From sequence record NC_107631.1: a stretch of 50,078 nucleotides of DNA. One strand, 5' to 3'. Under the pieces are notes generated by a model. That model was not told the origin of the DNA. It searched no databases and worked only from the letters and a program-made list of their open reading frames with translations. Origin of the DNA: a phage. Numbering within the stretch: position 1 is the stretch's first letter; the number at the start of each line of letters is the position of its first letter. This document shows positions 3,044 to 49,515 of this stretch, one piece after another. Position numbers and translations under genes: made by a program.

Positions 3044-3070
3044 GAAAGGAGGCTAAGCCTCCTTTTTTTC
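3044..3070. terminator. bidirectional intrinsic terminator between convergent genes
   Basis: AGGAGGC-taa-GCCTCCT hairpin flanked by an A-run on one side and T7 on the other. Confidence 0.7.
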
Positions 3071-3457
3071 GTCCTTGCGAAGTGAAAAATAAACCAGCAA
3101 CAGACCAATGAAAACGAGAGGCCAGCCAGCGATAGCGTCGTACCAGTTCCCAGGTTTTGTCACAGTGATTCTTTCAGCGTTAACCGTGTTGGCCTGAATG
3201 GTTGACACTTCAATTGACTTCTTCACGGAAGAGTCAACCTTTCCTACATTGGACTTTTCAACTTTAACATCTCGCTTATCTTCTGATTTTGCGGTTACTC
3301 CTGCTAATTGCTTTGTGTTCTCCTCTCCAATCTGTGCTGTAACTTCAGGTTTAGATCCGATTAAACCGCTCAGGGCAGATGCCATTGAGCAACCTGATAG
3401 AGAAATGACACCAACAGCCACTACAATCGCAATGCATGTTTTCTTCAGTTTCATCAT
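3053..3457 (-). CDS. unimolecular spanin (u-spanin), T1 gp11-like
   Basis: N-terminal lipoprotein signal with lipobox LSGC plus C-terminal transmembrane helix ([13 protein letters not shown]); sits directly after the endolysin gene. Confidence 0.7.
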
Positions 3458-3942
3458 AATTCCTTAACGCAATACGCGTATTCTTCAGCGCGTCGGTTCT
3501 TGAGTCCTCTAGACACTTCGCGCTTTTTGGTTTTTGGGTTGTAGTAGTATACCCATCGCCATAACTGATTGCACGCTTCCTTGTGCTTACTCTGATTTAT
3601 TAGCTTAAGCATTGTAGAAGATCCGAATGCGCCAGTACCAACGTTGAAAGTAAAACTGTACAGTGACGCGCGCATCGTTACCGGAATGTCAACCTTAACC
3701 TTCTTGTCAACGTATCGCTGAGCGACGCCGATATGTTTTATCAGCAATGCATCGCATTCTCGCTTAGTGTATTTCTTACCAGGTATGACGTCAGGCCCGG
3801 TTATTCCGCTGCATACGGTAGGGACTCCGGCGATATCGTAATAAACCTCGTATTCTATACCTTCGATCCGTTCCAGTAGGGTGGGTGTCAACGTCAAAGC
3901 GGCCCCGATGGATGCGCCTATAACGTTATTTTTTAAACTCAT
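3454..3942 (-). CDS. SAR endolysin (GH24 lysozyme, P21 R21-like)
   Basis: Gly/Ala-rich N-terminal SAR segment; [14 protein letters not shown] matches the E-D-T catalytic region of P21-type lysozymes (LEG..YKDIVGVWTVC); GGGGAG RBS. Confidence 0.85.
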
Positions 3943-4157
3943 TATCTCCCCCTAATCTTAAGCGCCTTATTTAGATCGCCATCGTTTAACGCTTCCTGAA
4001 TAGCCTTACTATCGCGATACTTCCAGTACGCTCCCCATGCACCAAAAAGCAGAAAGCAAATAAATGTAGCGCCAGCAATATAAAGCTGCCCTGTCGCCGC
4101 CCCTACCAACGAAGCACCGCCCGTGCTTGACGTAGCTGCTGTTAAAAATTCTTTCAT
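3942..4157 (-). CDS. holin (small, pinholin-like)
   Basis: Start moved to Met22 (ATG) because the track start is TTG; Gly-rich transmembrane segment; stop overlaps endolysin start (TAATG). Confidence 0.6.
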
Positions 4158-4191
4158 AATCTCACCATATATTTTTTGAACAAGTGAATCG

Positions 4192-4220
4192 ATTTTAACC
4201 TTCAAATTTACTTGATACAA
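4192..4220 (-). promoter_or_regulatory. sigma70-type promoter for the lysis cassette
   Basis: On minus strand TTGTAT-N17-TAAAAT immediately upstream of the holin. Confidence 0.4.
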
Positions 4221-4275: not shown

Positions 4276-4452
4276 TTAATCTATCGCAATAAATTCCAGA
4301 TAGCTACCGTTCAGAGGCGCTTGGATTGCTGAACATCGCCCGTCGTAAATCTCAAATAATCCCCCACCGAAATCATAACCAACACTATAGATCTGATTTA
4401 CGCGGAATGGAAGTGTTTGGGAGTCATTTCGGATGCACTTAACTAGCTTCAT
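4276..4452 (-). CDS. hypothetical small protein (about 58 aa), not in ORF track
   Basis: ATG 7 nt after AGAGG; served by a dyad-motif promoter; coordinates approximate. Confidence 0.4.
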   Translation of the reverse strand: MKLVKCIRNDSQTLPFRVNQIYSVGYDFGGGLFEIYDGRCSAIQAPLNGSYLEFIAID

Positions 4453-4481
4453 GATATAGCCTCTTTGTTTTCGATGTGGTT

Positions 4482-4525
4482 ACTATGCCCGAATCCATTC
4501 GGGCGTTTTTATCAATTAGTGCGAT
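4482..4525 (-). promoter_or_regulatory. dyad-motif middle promoter (degenerate site)
   Basis: TCGCAC-TAA-TTGATAA on minus strand; CATAGT hexamer 28 nt downstream, inside inverted repeat GCCCGAATGGATTCGGGC. Confidence 0.45.
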
Positions 4526-5667
4526 CCTGTCATTTCTGGACGATAGATGAAGCGACCTATTTCCCCAAACTGCTTATCGTAAACAATTACAGCCGCCTGG
4601 CGATATGAGCGCCACCCTCCGCGCGCTGCGTATGCGTCTTTCGCGCCTAACTGACCGTGCACTTCATCAATACCTAACGAGTGTTCAGTGATTGTCTGAT
4701 GATGCCAGTGACCGCTATGAGTATACACATACTTACTCTCTCCGAAGTCTGCACGGAAGTCTGCCGCCATCGCTGCAAGTCGCGTGTCTGCCTTTTTCAT
4801 AGTGTGCCCGTGAGTGTATCCCAATAAGGTGTTTCCCCAGCGAGTCTTATGCAGAATCATAGGACTAACGTCAACGAATACTCGCGGCTCGTCTTCATAA
4901 TATGCAGACATTGCAGCTCGCAGCCAAATCATCCCAGACTGATCGTGGTTCCCTTCGATAACCTGGACCTCGACTTCTTTGTGTTTCATAAGCATTTTGT
5001 CGATGGCGCGACGCACCGAACGAATCGCTACATGCACCAATTTCGCATATCGTGAATCCTGATCTAGAACGTGACCACTTGCCGGGGTAACAGCGTCAAG
5101 GCCGTCAGAGTGAAGGAAGTCGCCGCCGATTAACAGAACAGCCTTCTCTGCGTTCGGCGCAATATCGATCGCGTAATTAAAGAAGTCGCTAAGCACTTTT
5201 TCCGCTACGTCGGTGGAATAGTTCTCACCGCATTCATGCTTATGAGCAAGCGCGCCAATATGAAGATCGAATACCGGATAGAGTGCCAGCTTACCCATCG
5301 CCGTAGTAAGCCCTTGTGAGGTTAGTAGTTCAGTTGGCTTTGCTCGAGGCAGGTCTTCACAGAATGCAATACGCGCCGCTTCCATCATTGCCGCAATCTT
5401 CTCACGGTCCTGATCGGTCTTAACCCAGCGAACTACCTCGGTCCCATCTCCGCGAATCATCGTTGATGTACCTTTTACCATGAATCCTTCCGGCACGTTT
5501 TTAGCAACATGCTCGTTACCGTGGAAGTGGCCTTCTTTTGCAAGTTTTGCGTGACGCGCCTCGACAGTGCGAATGTGCATACCGTACTTTTCCGCGATCT
5601 CGCGAAGTGTAAGTCCGTTCATGCGCTCTTCGACAAGTTGTTCGGTAGTGATTTTAGCTTGTGACAT
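4516..5667 (-). CDS. calcineurin-like metallophosphoesterase with N-terminal HTH domain
   Basis: N-terminal HTH-like segment (LTLREIAEKYGMHIRTV); phosphoesterase motifs DLH, GGDFLHSDG, GNHD, GHT. Confidence 0.7.
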   Translation of the reverse strand: MSQAKITTEQLVEERMNGLTLREIAEKYGMHIRTVEARHAKLAKEGHFHGNEHVAKNVPEGFMVKGTSTMIRGDGTEVVRWVKTDQDREKIAAMMEAARIAFCEDLPRAKPTELLTSQGLTTAMGKLALYPVFDLHIGALAHKHECGENYSTDVAEKVLSDFFNYAIDIAPNAEKAVLLIGGDFLHSDGLDAVTPASGHVLDQDSRYAKLVHVAIRSVRRAIDKMLMKHKEVEVQVIEGNHDQSGMIWLRAAMSAYYEDEPRVFVDVSPMILHKTRWGNTLLGYTHGHTMKKADTRLAAMAADFRADFGESKYVYTHSGHWHHQTITEHSLGIDEVHGQLGAKDAYAARGGWRSYRQAAVIVYDKQFGEIGRFIYRPEMTGSH

Positions 5668-5745
5668 ATTTTAATCCTTACATGATAATGAAATACATTA
5701 CAGAAAATGAAATTAGCGGTGTTAATACTACAGCAAAATAAAGTT

Positions 5746-6147
5746 TCATGCCACAGCCTTTAACCAGAATCCTAGATCCGAAGATTTAAACTCAACAAGT
5801 TTTCCGTCAACCTCAAGCATCATACTGTTTCGGCCTGGTGAGTAGTAACCTATATGCAACTCCTGCTCAATACCGATAGTGCAAAGCACATTAACAAAGT
5901 CAGGTGGCAACCAGTCAGAGAAAGGGATTTGCTTAACCTGTTTTTTCCCAATCCATATAGTCTGGTAGTCATCTGATCTAATGTTTAAGCCTGGAAGGCT
6001 TGTTGTTCTTTGCGTTTTTTCGTTCTCGCTCAATTCTCTTTCCTTCTTCACGATAAAACTCAAGTGATGGGGTGGCTGGCACTCTATGCATTTTTCTAGG
6101 CATATCTTCCATAAATGAAATCTTTCCGTTTGAGATAATGCTAACAT
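5746..6147 (-). CDS. hypothetical ORF, doubtful
   Basis: Overlaps 5978..6250 by about 170 nt in another frame; poor RBS; kept only as a possibility. Confidence 0.2.
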   Translation of the reverse strand: MLALSQTERFHLWKICLEKCIECQPPHHLSFIVKKERELSENEKTQRTTSLPGLNIRSDDYQTIWIGKKQVKQIPFSDWLPPDFVNVLCTIGIEQELHIGYYSPGRNSMMLEVDGKLVEFKSSDLGFWLKAVA

Positions 6148-6250
6148 CCTTTATATCGAAATATTTTGCTATTAGTGCTATATCGTCTGAGATTCCGCAT
6201 TCCTTCGCGTGCTCCCACACTTCGCGCTTACCTTGTTTTTTTATCAGCAT
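5978..6250 (-). CDS. hypothetical protein
   Basis: ATG preceded by GGAGA at about 9 nt; basic C-terminus. Confidence 0.4.
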   Translation of the reverse strand: MLIKKQGKREVWEHAKECGISDDIALIAKYFDIKDVSIISNGKISFMEDMPRKMHRVPATPSLEFYREEGKRIERERKNAKNNKPSRLKH

Positions 6251-6437
6251 TGGTTAGTTTCTCCACGTCAGAGATGAAGCCTTCGACTTCTTCAACTGAG
6301 CAACGGTAATAAGACATTTTAAGGAAGTTCATAGCAATATCCCAATCGAAGTTGCCGCCTTGCTTGTTCGTAATGTGAACAGCCATTTTTGCGGACTGTT
6401 GAGCGATATTGAAAAAGTTTGCGTTAATGCGTGCCAT
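6228..6437 (-). CDS. hypothetical protein
   Basis: Start moved to Met6, preceded by GAGGAATCAG, the conserved RBS context seen at other genes. Confidence 0.5.
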   Translation of the reverse strand: MARINANFFNIAQQSAKMAVHITNKQGGNFDWDIAMNFLKMSYYRCSVEEVEGFISDVEKLTNADKKTR

Positions 6438-6469
6438 CTTCTGATTCCTCATTTCGTTTCGATGAAATA

Positions 6470-6513
6470 ACTATACCCGACTTTCGCCGGGTAGTTTTAG
6501 CAATTAGTGCTGA
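6470..6513 (-). promoter_or_regulatory. dyad-motif middle promoter
   Basis: CAGCAC-TAA-TTGCTAA then TATAGT 28 nt downstream inside inverted repeat ACCCGGCGAAAGTCGGGT. Confidence 0.5.
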
Positions 6514-7492: not shown

Positions 7493-7536
7493 ATAATGCC
7501 AGATTCCATCCCGGCAGTTTTAACAAGAAGTGCTAT
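7493..7536 (-). promoter_or_regulatory. dyad-motif middle promoter upstream of dam
   Basis: ATAGCAC-TTC-TTGTTAA then CATTAT/TATTAT 28 nt downstream. Confidence 0.5.
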
Positions 7537-7949
7537 TTCATCATTTCGTAAATTGCGATCTTGAATTGCCCGAATCCGTATGCGACGGCAGAGAAGCCGC
7601 CACGCTCCCGGACCTTTTGGAGAAATTCCCTTTGCTTGTCGCTGACTGGTGACGCCTTTCCTTTTCCTGACTTATTAACCCGCTTAAGTTCGATTGCTGC
7701 AAACGGGTATCGTGAGTTAACACCAATCAGGATAACAAAGTCTGACACTCCTTTAAGTAATCCGGCCTGCTCATCCCTGAGCGCCGATGTGATTGTTTTT
7801 TCACCTTCATTGACAGTGTGCCAAAATAGAAGGTGCGGGAAGTTGTATTTCAGCCAGGACACGCAATCTACCTGGTGCGCGTCCTCTTTCCGTGTATCGC
7901 TGGGATCTCTCTCGTAAAATTCTAAATAATCACCTTTGTCTGTAATCAT
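7533..7949 (-). CDS. VRR-NUC domain nuclease
   Basis: PD-(D/E)XK-like core (GVSDFVIL..ELK); sits immediately downstream of the helicase, a common pairing; GGAGGA RBS. Confidence 0.65.
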   Translation of the reverse strand: MITDKGDYLEFYERDPSDTRKEDAHQVDCVSWLKYNFPHLLFWHTVNEGEKTITSALRDEQAGLLKGVSDFVILIGVNSRYPFAAIELKRVNKSGKGKASPVSDKQREFLQKVRERGGFSAVAYGFGQFKIAIYEMMK

Positions 7950-10006: not shown

Positions 10007-10045
10007 ACACGGCATACAGTAAACGTTTTTAGCAAAAAGTGCTAT
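10002..10045 (-). promoter_or_regulatory. dyad-motif promoter driving the helicase operon, overlapping the divergent early promoter
   Basis: Dyad TTAGCAA-AAA-GTGCTAT (ATAGCAC-TTT-TTGCTAA on minus) with TATTAT 28 nt downstream on the minus strand; the same dyad lies in the 5'UTR of the plus-strand transcript. Confidence 0.5.
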
Positions 10046-10057
10046 AGGAGAATTAAG

Positions 10058-10510
10058 ATGAGTATTCAACGTATCGCAGAGTCAACTGGTGAAATCGATA
10101 AACGTCACATCAATGGTAACAACGGAACACGACGCGGTAAAGATAAAAAGCCACGACAGCGCTGCGGATTCTATATTCATAAAGAAGAAACACGCGCAGG
10201 ATTGCGAGCACGACTTGATGCGCTTATCGAATATTATGGTGGCCCTGCGGCCTGCGCAAAGGCTCTAAAAGTTAGCAATCAGACGGTGCAAGGCTGGAAA
10301 GAACGCAATATGATTTCATGGCAAGGTGCTGAAGCTGCGCATCGTGCTTACCGCCGACAGGGGTGTAAAGGGTTTAGGGCCGCATGGTTGCGATTCGACC
10401 TGAAGTTTGACGGTAACGGCAAGTGCATTGAGAAGCGATGCAAGAACAAGAAGTTTATGCGAGTGGTGAAGAAGGAAGATATCGGGACGACCAATAGCAT
10501 TTTTAGTTAA
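10058..10510 (+). CDS. HTH DNA-binding protein, candidate transcriptional regulator
   Basis: Cro/C1-type HTH signature (AKALKVSNQTVQGW); basic protein; RBS AGGAG. Confidence 0.6.
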   Translation: MSIQRIAESTGEIDKRHINGNNGTRRGKDKKPRQRCGFYIHKEETRAGLRARLDALIEYYGGPAACAKALKVSNQTVQGWKERNMISWQGAEAAHRAYRRQGCKGFRAAWLRFDLKFDGNGKCIEKRCKNKKFMRVVKKEDIGTTNSIFS

Positions 10511-14686: not shown

Positions 14687-15751
14687 TTACTTATTTTGGT
14701 AACGCACCCATGATGGCGTTTCAAGTTCGATCTCGCTTGCGTCGCCAGCGTACCCAGGCCAAACATCCATTTCAGAGCAAGCCTTGTAAGTGTGGACTAC
14801 GCTAATGTACTGGTTACGACCGATCCTGATTTGCTCCATAGTCATACGGTAAGCAAGTGCGATGTAAGGCTCTTTTTTCTCCTGCGTAAGCAATCGAACT
14901 ACGATCGGGATATCTTCCGGAAAGTTTCCTTCAAAAGCGCCAGCCTGGATTGCACGTCGTAGCAGGTCATGCTGCAAGGCCATTTTTAGATAATACCCGT
15001 GATTGTATGCCAGTCTAGGGAACTCTAACGGGTTAGCGCTCATCGTGGTTTTGAAGTCAGTGATAATTAGCGCTTCAGGGAAAATAACGTCTTCAAATAC
15101 CGGATCGCCGTTCTCATCATAACCAGTCAGCACGCGGCCTGGAACATTCTCTTTGTAGTCCAGATGGTCAAGACGAACCTTAACTTTGACGCCGGATATC
15201 TCACCGAAGATTGAGATCTCACGCTGAGCCGTCTCGCTATTGATGCACGCTTCATGATCCTGATTTTGCTCAAGGATTGCCCTCATCTTCATGCAGGCGT
15301 CGTATTTGTCAGCGTCAACCAATTTCTTTCCTTCAGCGCGCGCCTCGGCCTCAGCAATTAGTTCAATCAGATATTGGACGTTAAGGTCTTCACCACAATC
15401 AACCATCATTTTGATGAGGTCCGGGTACTGCTTACCGGATGTACCTTTCAGGCCGAATGATTTTAATTTAGATGCCAGCGCCGCCTGCGAAGTAATCAGA
15501 TCCTTAAACTCTGCCGGAGCCGGGCAACGGGCATACGATGCAGTAAACAGATCTCGGCTCTCAAAGTTGGTATGCGACTGAGTGCCGAACTCCAGCGCTT
15601 TCGTTGTCTCATTCTTCTTGAATCGCCAGTTAGCCGGGCAAGTTTGATAGATTTCTGCAAGGCTCGATCCGCTCACATACTCTGCCGCCCAACCTTCGTT
15701 GCTATGATACTCGTCATTAGAAAGCTGACTTGATGTGAATACCTGGAACAT
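14687..15751 (-). CDS. PD-(D/E)XK exonuclease (recombination partner of ERF)
   Basis: IITDFKTT motif of RecB/Cas4-type nucleases; first gene of an exo-erf-ssb operon; AGGAG RBS. Confidence 0.6.
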   Translation of the reverse strand: MFQVFTSSQLSNDEYHSNEGWAAEYVSGSSLAEIYQTCPANWRFKKNETTKALEFGTQSHTNFESRDLFTASYARCPAPAEFKDLITSQAALASKLKSFGLKGTSGKQYPDLIKMMVDCGEDLNVQYLIELIAEAEARAEGKKLVDADKYDACMKMRAILEQNQDHEACINSETAQREISIFGEISGVKVKVRLDHLDYKENVPGRVLTGYDENGDPVFEDVIFPEALIITDFKTTMSANPLEFPRLAYNHGYYLKMALQHDLLRRAIQAGAFEGNFPEDIPIVVRLLTQEKKEPYIALAYRMTMEQIRIGRNQYISVVHTYKACSEMDVWPGYAGDASEIELETPSWVRYQNK

Positions 15752-40453: not shown

Positions 40454-40497
40454 ACTATATCAAATCACCCCATCGACGTTTTAGCAATTCGTGCTAT
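40454..40497 (-). promoter_or_regulatory. dyad-motif middle promoter
   Basis: ATAGCAC-GAA-TTGCTAA; TGaTATAGT extended -10 28 nt downstream inside inverted repeat GTCGATG..CATCGAC. Confidence 0.55.
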
Positions 40498-41174: not shown

Positions 41175-41708
41175 TCATTCATCTACCCCGTGGGATTTTA
41201 AATGATCGTGAACGTTATCACCATAGTCAACTACAGCGTAAGTGGTTATCCCAAGCGATCTGAATAATGGAATAATTTGCGGCGAGTCATCCCAAGCCGC
41301 CAGAATGTTATCAATGCCGATCGCGCGCACCGCCTCTTCTTTCATTACCGTGTCTTTGCGGTTGTCGGTGTGCGGTCGCATGACTAAGTAATCATATCGA
41401 GCGCCGTGATGCTTAAGCCATAACTCAGATGCGTAACGCACCTCATCACTTCGCCCGGTTAAAATTATTACATGATATCCAGCGGCAAACATAGAGTTCA
41501 TCACATCGATCGTGCTTTGGATAGGGTTGTCAAATATTGCCGCGCGGTTAAACTCGGACCAGCTTTCAGTCAAGTGCAAATCCTTTGTCGGCAGCAGGTG
41601 AAGTCGACCAGAACCATCGCTAAGTGTCCCGTCAAAGTCAAAGATTGCCACGCGGCGCGTGCCGAGAAACAGGTTGATTGTCTGGCCCCAAATTGTGATT
41701 TTATCCAT
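41175..41708 (-). CDS. HAD-family phosphatase, T4 Pnk 3'-phosphatase domain-like
   Basis: VAIFDFDGTLSD and NP..GYHVIILTGRS match the T4 Pnk phosphatase motifs FDVDGTL and GYQIVVVSGRES. Confidence 0.65.
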   Translation of the reverse strand: MDKITIWGQTINLFLGTRRVAIFDFDGTLSDGSGRLHLLPTKDLHLTESWSEFNRAAIFDNPIQSTIDVMNSMFAAGYHVIILTGRSDEVRYASELWLKHHGARYDYLVMRPHTDNRKDTVMKEEAVRAIGIDNILAAWDDSPQIIPLFRSLGITTYAVVDYGDNVHDHLKSHGVDE

Positions 41709-43802: not shown

Positions 43803-43842
43803 AGCTGATTCCTCTGATTGGTTGCCATGCTTCAATAAGGCC

Positions 43843-43886
43843 ACTATATCAAATGGCCTTGCGGAAGGTTTAGCAATTCGTGCTAT
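43843..43886 (-). promoter_or_regulatory. dyad-motif middle promoter (cassette family B)
   Basis: ATAGCAC-GAA-TTGCTAA then TGaTATAGT 28 nt downstream inside inverted repeat GGCCA..TGGCC. Confidence 0.55.
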
Positions 43887-44435: not shown

Positions 44436-44465
44436 AATGACTTCCTCTTAGTGGTCGATGCGGGG

Positions 44466-44509
44466 ATTATACCAGTCAGGACAAATCCCCTTTTAACAAT
44501 TCGTGCTAT
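44466..44509 (-). promoter_or_regulatory. dyad-motif middle promoter
   Basis: ATAGCAC-GAA-TTGTTAA then TGgTATAAT 28 nt downstream inside inverted repeat GGGGATT..AATCCCC. Confidence 0.6.
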
Positions 44510-47911: not shown

Positions 47912-47928
47912 ATAGCACTTTTTGCTAA
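47912..47928 (+). promoter_or_regulatory. dyad element without an obvious -10 partner
   Basis: ATAGCAC-TTT-TTGCTAA; no -10-like hexamer at +28 on either strand. Confidence 0.4.
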
Positions 47929-48116
47929 AAATGGAGATGACTACCAGGCGAACCGGGTAACACCAATTCCTCCCTCTCACAATCATTGCAATCTCAGCAA
48001 CAAATCAACCAACTGTTGCACACCATGCAATAATCACGTTTCATCATTCGCAATCAATAACAATCAAAATTATTCCACCTATTCCAGTATTGATGGAATA
48101 ATGAGCAATTATTGAA

Positions 48117-49331: not shown

Positions 49332-49471
49332 TTTATGTTCACACCTTTTATACAGGAAAGTTTAACAGCGTAAAAAATGTTCGCGTTTACGATAGTCACC
49401 AAAAAGCAATGATGCAGAGAGTAGTGCTAGGAGGAACAATCAAAGAGTGCAAAGTAATCTCTGAGTACTGA
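49328..49471 (+). CDS. hypothetical very small protein, not in ORF track
   Basis: ATG overlapping the previous stop (ATGA); coordinates approximate. Confidence 0.25.
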   Translation: MIYVHTFYTGKFNSVKNVRVYDSHQKAMMQRVVLGGTIKECKVISEY

Positions 49472-49515
49472 TAGCACAAATTGCTAAAGACACACACCGG
49501 GGAGTGAGTTATATT
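49471..49515 (+). promoter_or_regulatory. dyad-motif promoter
   Basis: ATAGCAC-AAA-TTGCTAA then TTATAT(T) 28-29 nt downstream inside inverted repeat GGGAGT..ACTCCC. Confidence 0.5.

Follow-up and report, generated by a model that had tools for sequence, protein, structure and literature searches.

The gene at 4516..5667 on the minus strand of phage sequence record NC_107631.1 (the window, that is, the whole stretch of 50,078 nucleotides which was analysed) was found to encode a protein of 383 amino acids (aa) in which a helix-turn-helix (HTH) domain and a family-specific hairpin module precede a metallophosphoesterase (MPE) core with an intact active site. The gene, its product and their relatives are designated here HTH-MPE; they are an orphan clade of the MPE superfamily, without a close solved relative, and the HTH-hairpin-MPE architecture is distinctive of the family. 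By analogy with characterised enzymes, and judging from its sequence, HTH-MPE is tentatively proposed, with somewhat less than even confidence, to be a partner-free, HTH-tethered, Mn2+-dependent DNA endonuclease for DNA breakdown and nucleotide salvage.

The window phage is a T1-like siphophage of the Drexlerviridae. The 5-kb stretch around the HTH-MPE gene is 93-94% identical to the Escherichia/Shigella phages CLB_P3, SH2 and Shfl1, and the protein itself is 99.7% identical to its counterpart in Shigella phage ISF002. The orthologue in T1 is ST16 (gene 16; 71.5% identity), which is labelled "DNA repair exonuclease", and that in TLS is gene 66, a "proof-reading exonuclease" in the TLS annotation (PMC11447400). 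The gene starts with ATG and ends with a TAA stop codon at 4516-4518, and its features are as follows:

4516..5667, minus strand: HTH-MPE coding sequence, orthologue of T1 gene 16 and TLS gene 66, PHROG 704
5675..5679, minus strand: ribosome-binding site AAGGA, 8 nt before the HTH-MPE ATG, read from the sequence
5530..5646, minus strand: three-helix HTH (aa 8-46), sigma-70 region 4 / LuxR-GerE-like, recognition helix at about aa 32-44
5314..5493, minus strand: family-specific linker module (aa 59-118), beta-hairpin 62-86 and helix 88-104 in the AlphaFold2 model
4543..5301, minus strand: binuclear MPE core (aa 123-375), AlphaFold2 predicted local distance difference test (pLDDT) score 95-98

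Domain architecture, active site and family

HTH-MPE was analysed with a family alignment of the query and 110 diverse representatives (111 sequences, 31-67% identity) and with an AlphaFold2 structure prediction made on that alignment (mean pLDDT 92.6, predicted template modelling score (pTM) 0.79). An initial annotation, made from the nucleotide sequence, had described the protein as an HTH-like N-terminus combined with a calcineurin-like phosphoesterase core, and this description was borne out by the Pfam matches of the family, the invariant motifs, the AlphaFold2 model and Foldseek. The domain search which that annotation had proposed as a check placed both domains below threshold in the query and supported them at the level of the family.

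For the HTH, the query alone gave sub-threshold Pfam matches to Sigma70_r4_2 (E=0.011) and HTH_23 (E=0.013). Within the set of 111 sequences, matches were obtained to HTH_1 (24 sequences), HTH_8 (20), HTH_50 (14) and Sigma70_r4_2 (12), the best family-level E-values being 1.5e-9 for Sigma70_r4_2 and 2.4e-8 for GerE. The three helices of the AlphaFold2 model were placed at residues 8-16, 21-27 and 32-44, with a pLDDT of 93-96. When the family profile was compared with the sequences of PDB entries, a GerE structure was matched at an insignificant E-value of 0.025. On sequence grounds the HTH assignment is solid at the level of the family.

All five metal-ligand motifs of the binuclear metallophosphoesterase superfamily were present in the HTH-MPE protein, namely D134-x-H136-x-G, G182-D183-x-x-H186, G239-N240-H241-D242, H286 and G319-H320-x-H322. 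Across the 111 sequences D134, H136, G182-D183, N240-H241, H286, G319 and H322 were invariant, and H320 and H186 were conserved at a level of at least 90%. The Pfam matches of the query alone were again sub-threshold (Metallophos E=0.02, with 15.7 bits against a gathering threshold of 21.5; Metallophos_2 E=0.012), and Metallophos matched 28 of the 111 aligned sequences. Foldseek returned MPE-fold proteins at a probability of 1.0. In the AlphaFold2 model the MPE sandwich closes at residue 375 of 383, with no capping or other domain after it. The architecture and the intact state of the active site are direct observations.

In the linker module, G75 and W81 of the beta-hairpin were near-invariant (alignments A1 and A2). 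The most conserved loop specific to the family follows motif II (H186-x-D188...T194-P-x-S-G-H-x-L201-D202-x-D204-x-R206) and is acidic. Many relatives aligned only from about residue 57 on and had a different N-terminal region, and longer relatives carried two HTH domains in this region; the domain fusions of the longer relatives were limited to such extra HTH domains, with no informative partner domain. Given where these alignments start and how the N-termini differ, the conserved unit is the hairpin together with the MPE core, preceded by an N-terminus which is variable yet consistently of the HTH type.

An exhaustive HMMER search returned 4,644 cluster representatives (at 50% identity) with E<=1e-3 and 966 with E<=1e-30, while tblastn located HTH-MPE in 2,018 phage records. 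The gene was core in the Drexlerviridae (508 of 522 genomes), every sampled context was a phage genome, and the distribution spanned unrelated phage families; the size of the family and its gene contexts were, like the architecture, observed directly. HTH-MPE is thus core to the Drexlerviridae and present in thousands of clusters across unrelated phage groups, yet it has no curated model: neither a Pfam model nor any other curated domain model dedicated to the family was found, nor a close solved structure, and a search of the single HTH-MPE sequence against PDB chains gave nothing relevant. Foldseek matches in the PDB were to Vps29, Mre11, PolD DP1, Rv0805, purple acid phosphatase, GpdQ, LpxH and YfcE, with E-values of about 1e-7 to 1e-5 and template modelling (TM) scores of 0.3-0.6, and those in BFVD were to other unnamed phage MPEs.

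The match to PHROG 704 (E=4.8e-157) covered the full length of the protein, with residues 4-380 aligned to positions 2-389 of the 390-position profile. The name of that group, "DNA repair exonuclease", is a name given by sequence homology only, and the labels on some viral relatives and on TLS gp66 are "DNA polymerase II small subunit" or "proof-reading exonuclease". The database names of the HTH-MPE gene are borrowed and probably misleading; the gene had already been catalogued as a T1-like core gene, probably under a wrong name.

A candidate nuclease and its alternatives

The initial annotation had also suggested a DNA-targeted nuclease. This stood as the best-supported reading, as an inferred and not a demonstrated activity, because of the motif spelling, the HTH fusion, the DNA-processing neighbours, the precedent of a mycobacteriophage enzyme and the breakdown of host DNA by T1 and TLS. 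The spelling DxHxG...GDxxH...GNHD is of the nuclease type, as in Mre11 and the MPE of Pseudomonas putida. In the P. putida enzyme, a monomer without a capping domain, DNA cleavage requires H81 (D78-x-x-H81) and H113 (N112-H113), neither of which is needed for hydrolysis of bis-p-nitrophenyl phosphate (bis-pNPP), and the products are a mix of 3'-PO4 and 3'-OH ends (PMC7826289). The counterparts of these two residues in HTH-MPE are H186 (conserved at 90% or above) and the invariant H241. HTH-MPE also shares with the P. putida enzyme the lack of a capping domain, and the best MPE-type matches of the family were to T. maritima Mre11 and to PdeM, the family to which the P. putida enzyme belongs. 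Gp48 of mycobacteriophage A10ZJ24, which is an MPE, was shown to break down DNA in linear, plasmid and genomic form and to harm the chromosome of the host (PMC12287305). During infection by T1 and TLS the host genome is degraded and its nucleotides are used again, and the annotators of TLS did not identify the gene responsible (PMC11447400).

DNA-processing genes were found beside HTH-MPE in several contexts. In PP99, a Pectobacterium phage of the Autographiviridae, the genes run in the order 5'-3' exonuclease, endonuclease VII (Pfam E=1.3e-7), HTH-MPE, HAD_PNKP 3'-phosphatase (Pfam E=1.4e-14), deoxynucleoside monophosphate (dNMP) kinase and ligase. Many Drexlerviridae have a "polynucleotide kinase" and a dNMP kinase directly 3' of the HTH-MPE gene (PMC13164509). 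In the metagenomic locus L016, where the Mor activator of Mu was weakly matched, HTH-MPE and an endonuclease VII-like gene lie between the genes for the small (TerS) and large (TerL) terminase subunits. The window itself encodes a possible pathway partner of HTH-MPE:

41175..41708, minus strand: HAD-type polynucleotide 3'-phosphatase domain protein, orthologue of T1 ST64 (Pfam HAD_PNKP E=1.1e-16)

The product of this gene is 91% identical to T1 ST64 and 46% identical to PP99 orf29, which is encoded directly downstream of the PP99 HTH-MPE. On reading the sequence a DxDGT motif was seen and no kinase P-loop; since the protein has the HAD 3'-phosphatase domain only, "polynucleotide kinase", as applied to proteins of the T1 ST64 type, is a misleading annotation. 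The 3'-PO4 ends left by the P. putida MPE would make a 3'-phosphatase a sensible companion for HTH-MPE.

In the mechanism proposed, the N-terminal HTH would hold the enzyme on duplex DNA, and the MPE core would cut exposed strands (single-stranded regions, nicks, loops and ends) with a metal-bridged water as the nucleophile and H241 (GNH) as the general acid, assisted by H186 (GDxxH). The enzyme would have no capping domain and would need no Rad50/SbcC-type ATPase. The DNA broken down would most plausibly be the host chromosome, and the products would pass to the phage RecE-type exonuclease, the HAD 3'-phosphatase (41175-41708) and nucleotide kinases for reuse in phage DNA synthesis. DNA as the substrate, Mn2+ as the metal and this biological role are the most likely assignments, and were inferred from the comparisons above.

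A more specific role in T1-like phages, in which HTH-MPE would start the degradation of the host chromosome and its products would enter salvage through a 3'-phosphatase and nucleotide kinases, is considered doubtful; it does provide a testable candidate for the enzyme of host-chromosome breakdown in these phages. Such a role would presumably correspond to the classical T1 "gene 2.5" phenotype. Loss of T1 "gene 2.5" raises generalized transduction. If HTH-MPE is a partner-free, HTH-guided nuclease, the small group of stand-alone MPE nucleases would be extended, the poor transduction by T1-type phages, a matter relevant to the safety of phage therapy, could be explained, and the family would be a new class of HTH-guided, partner-free MPE DNA nucleases of phages.

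Several results weigh against a nuclease. No statistically significant match to any characterised nuclease was obtained in the sequence and profile searches, and no biochemical or genetic work on any member of the HTH-MPE family was found in the literature. With the NCBIfam model of PdeM, the family of the P. putida MPE, 43 of the 111 sequences gave matches, at E-values down to 1.6e-5, and membership was rejected, the matches covering about 30 residues around GNHD (model positions 87-118 of 207 in the best relative) and scoring 12 bits for the query and 24 bits for the best relative against a curated cut-off of 150. Foldseek scores were alike across MPE folds, so that the fold indicates neither a subfamily nor a substrate, and the acidic loop after motif II would fit a small molecule as substrate, or a third metal, as well. 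Other candidate nucleases are encoded by the phage, one RecE-like (14687-15751) and one at 7533-7949 (VRR-NUC in related phage records). The genomic position of HTH-MPE varies and is often moron-like, and some contexts are temperate (an adjoining integrase in L012, the lambdoid L006 and the Mu-like L016); temperate phages are not known to break down the DNA of their host. In addition, the nuclease model does not explain how phage DNA is spared.

The same superfamily offers other activities. HTH-MPE could be a nucleotide phosphodiesterase or phosphatase, for example one which destroys the messengers of immune systems (CBASS, Pycsar, Thoeris or type III CRISPR), with an HTH that autoregulates or anchors. 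MPE folds do include cyclic-nucleotide phosphodiesterases, Rv0805 being among the top Foldseek matches, and the conserved acidic loop would fit; the variable, moron-like position (Bas74, L011, P0348) and the spread over unrelated phage families are both typical of counter-defence genes. Such an activity is nevertheless judged unlikely, given that a DNA-binding-type HTH is kept across the family, that the GDxxH histidine is a nuclease feature and that the neighbours in PP99, L016 and the Drexlerviridae are DNA-processing genes; no PADLOC model matched and no precedent was found in the literature. Rather improbable, too, is a part in end healing, where the protein, as a 2',3'-cyclic phosphodiesterase or a 3'-phosphatase, would act on the ends of broken RNA or DNA alongside a PNKP-type phosphatase, a kinase and a ligase. 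The healing domain of Clostridium thermocellum Pnkp (CthPnkp) is an MPE, which supplies the analogy; in PP99 HTH-MPE is grouped with the HAD_PNKP phosphatase, the dNMP kinase and the ligase, and in many Drexlerviridae it adjoins the "polynucleotide kinase". The window, however, already encodes a distinct protein with a 3'-phosphatase domain (41175-41708), the annotations of T1 and TLS include no RNA ligase, and an HTH would be unexpected on an RNA repair enzyme. Both of these alternatives were kept because the boundary positions of the gene are typical of accessory and counter-defence genes.

The database name (PHROG 704, RefSeq) would imply a true Mre11/SbcD-type "DNA repair exonuclease", acting as a dimer with a phage or host Rad50/SbcC-type ATPase on DNA ends and hairpins. 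Mre11 was among the top fold matches, motifs I and II are Mre11-like, and T. maritima Mre11 was the best MPE-type match of the family profile among PDB sequences; its E-value of 0.095 is insignificant, however, as is that of the MPE nuclease (0.67), and the TM score was only about 0.4. Neither SbcD_C nor Mre11_DNA_bind was matched by Pfam in the 111 sequences, and no Rad50/SbcC-type ATPase was found among the scanned open reading frames (ORFs) of the window or is annotated in T1 or TLS. With an insignificant match, no capping domain and no SMC-like ATPase partner, membership of Mre11/SbcD was rejected, and this is the least probable of the explanations considered.

The last alternative concerns a repeated dyad element, ATAGCAC-N4-TGCTAAA (ATAGCACGAATTGCTAAA), of which the initial annotation had named HTH-MPE as a second candidate binder; the protein would then regulate T1-type promoters, its enzyme domain possibly moonlighting or sensing. 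The HTH is the part best conserved in comparison with T1 (aa 1-58 are 95% identical, the core 70%), its central helices are well kept in the dyad-bearing TLS, and one dyad copy touches the HTH-MPE stop codon. At <=2 mismatches, 20 copies of the dyad were counted in the window, 21 in T1 and 20 in TLS (0.25-0.4 in shuffles, 0.4 for the window), while there were 0 copies in 35.8 kb of Bas74, in 24.5 kb of PP99 and in eleven further HTH-MPE loci (L004-L012, L014-L016). The dyad-less Bas74 and PP99 share the HTH residues R33, V35, R38 and K41-LAK-x-G46, which are conserved in the T1 type. Homologues of another regulator, phrog_2856, were present in exactly the three dyad-bearing genomes among those checked (window, T1 and TLS), a small sample of three dyad-bearing and two fairly complete dyad-less genomes. 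The phrog_2856 regulator of the window (150 aa; 10058-10510, plus strand) has a Cro-like HTH motif, read by eye, and is 98.7% identical to T1 ST23 and 58% identical to the TLS regulator (tblastn, 142 aa); its gene is divergent from an adjoining perfect dyad copy at 10028-10045. It was accurately noted that the HTH-MPE stop codon overlaps a dyad site, since a degenerate copy at 4508-4525 covers the TAA, but the corresponding dyad of T1 begins 1 nt past the stop codon and TLS has no dyad between gene 66 and the holin gene; the overlap, compared in this way, is incidental and not conserved. Dyad binding by HTH-MPE was therefore not supported and is very improbable, and the phrog_2856 product appears more likely to be the dyad-binding protein.

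The dyad element and the genes around HTH-MPE

Nearly all dyad copies lie upstream of genes and are oriented with transcription. Examples on the minus strand are found at 40480-40497, 43869-43886, 10028-10045, 6496-6513 and 4508-4525, and on the plus strand at 47912-47929 and 49471-49488. A -10-like hexamer (often TGnTATAGT) was observed exactly 22 nt after TTGCTA at 13 of the 20 copies in the window, 13 of 21 in T1 and 16 of 20 in TLS, compared to a random expectation of about 2%. The fixed spacing of 22 nt points to a promoter architecture in which the dyad is centred near -42, a typical position for an activator site, and is not an ordinary -35 element. The dyad therefore looks like the mark of an activator-dependent promoter class of T1-group phages. 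The repeat of TLS was reported as a 21-nt element with its function left open, and only three sigma-70-like promoters were found in that phage (PMC11447400). The elements and genes nearest to HTH-MPE are as follows:

4482..4525, minus strand: promoter-like element of the SH3 gene and lysis cassette, made up of a degenerate dyad at 4508-4525 (2 mismatches, covering the TAA), a G+C hairpin at 4488-4505 and a -10-like CATAGT at 4482-4487
6496..6513, minus strand: nearest intergenic upstream dyad
4276..4452, minus strand: standalone SH3 (DUF7244) protein, 58 aa, downstream of HTH-MPE, 90% identity to T1 ST14
4220..3053: holin, endolysin and spanin, after the SH3 gene

The dyad at 6496-6513 probably drives, as a putative promoter, the operon which ends with HTH-MPE (small ORFs 6452..5746, then 5667..4516). 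Nearer to HTH-MPE, another dyad-like copy (6164-6181) lies inside a predicted ORF. This is a 90-aa ORF (5978..6250, minus strand) without an annotated T1 counterpart, the equivalent T1 stretch being intergenic; it is overlapped by a 133-aa ORF (5746..6147, minus strand), the 5' end of which is probably over-extended, as T1 ST17 is equivalent to the final 95 aa.

The hairpin at 4488-4505 was considered as a terminator for HTH-MPE and rejected, as it has no T-run on the minus strand and was called by the terminator scan on the plus strand only; it sits within the 22-nt spacer of the next promoter-like element. The spacer between dyad and -10-like hexamer mostly holds a G+C-rich hairpin of variable sequence (4488-4505, 6474-6493, 7497-7516, 43840-43865 and 44465-44490), and at several dyad copies the hairpin stem encloses the -10-like hexamer itself. 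Several corresponding hairpin positions are given as rho-independent terminators in the T1 annotation. It seems, then, that a single compact element combines terminator and promoter in interleaved form.

The standalone SH3 (DUF7244) protein is often part of the lysis module in Drexlerviridae (PMC13164509). HTH-MPE adjoins non-homologous lysis cassettes in T1-like phages, in Vibrio phage K102 (L004) and in L006, L008, L010 and L014, and lies away from lysis genes in Bas74, PP99, L011 and L016; a functional link to lysis was rejected, and the adjacency was taken to reflect a boundary held in common or a site for accessory genes. In Bas74 and in the L011/P0348 type, HTH-MPE is a lone gene on the opposite strand, and the Bas74 copy is beside a superinfection-immunity gene. 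In L016 (3492-7799) the HTH-MPE gene overlaps the stop codon of the small terminase gene and is followed by the endonuclease VII-like gene and then by a GpA-type large terminase gene; two nuclease genes, the nuclease role of HTH-MPE being a prediction, thus sit inside a packaging operon.

An HNH endonuclease gene was seen directly beside HTH-MPE in T1 (downstream; ST15, L001 7207-7689) and in TLS (upstream; endY, L017 39965-40636), as well as beside the gene in Vibrio phage K102 (L004 6064-6573) and in L014 (5349-5876), and is absent from the window at 4453-4515. This pattern of presence and absence suggests mobile homing endonucleases for which the HTH-MPE gene is a landing site. A small protein of the phrog_2452 type (motif VYDVLR...HAIKKLL.G.RG) is encoded directly beside HTH-MPE in Bas74 (L002 6128-6358), where the gene lies downstream with a stop/start overlap, and in L015 (74-511), where it lies upstream; it was not found in T1-like phages.

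Comparison with characterised metallophosphoesterases

HTH-MPE resembles the lambda Ser/Thr protein phosphatase (nin221) in being an MPE of a phage whose gene lies immediately upstream of late or lysis genes. The PPP-type motifs GDxHG, GDxVDRG and GNHE are absent from it, however, and it reads FDLHIG, GGDFLHSDG and GNHD in their place. The small subunit DP1 of PolD, an archaeal Mre11-like proofreading exonuclease, shares the MPE fold with HTH-MPE (Foldseek), at a TM score of about 0.35-0.40 and about 10% identity, while HTH-MPE has neither an OB domain nor a PolD partner; according to the T1 and TLS annotations, no DNA polymerase is encoded by T1-like phages.

Mre11/SbcD, together with gp47 of phage T4 and D13 of phage T5, shares with HTH-MPE the MPE fold and the motifs DxHxG, GDxxH and GNHD, and is the source of the database name. 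Unlike these proteins, HTH-MPE has an N-terminal HTH in place of a capping domain and a Rad50/SbcC/gp46 partner. Gp48 of A10ZJ24 is a phage-encoded MPE with the five motifs and provides the functional precedent, although its motif I starts at residue 10, leaving no N-terminal HTH, and its host is actinobacterial; the two proteins are likened at the level of the superfamily only.

The remaining comparison is with the P. putida MPE, or PdeM (TIGR04123; PDB 6NVO), a stand-alone Mn2+-dependent single-strand DNA endonuclease. Unlike PdeM, HTH-MPE is phage-borne, is about 170 aa longer, with the HTH and beta-hairpin module, and is not part of a repair operon with an Lhr helicase, an ATP-dependent ligase and an exonuclease. 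Like PdeM, it has a single core with the same metal ligands, is without a capping domain or an ATPase partner, and carries both of the histidines which are essential for nuclease activity.

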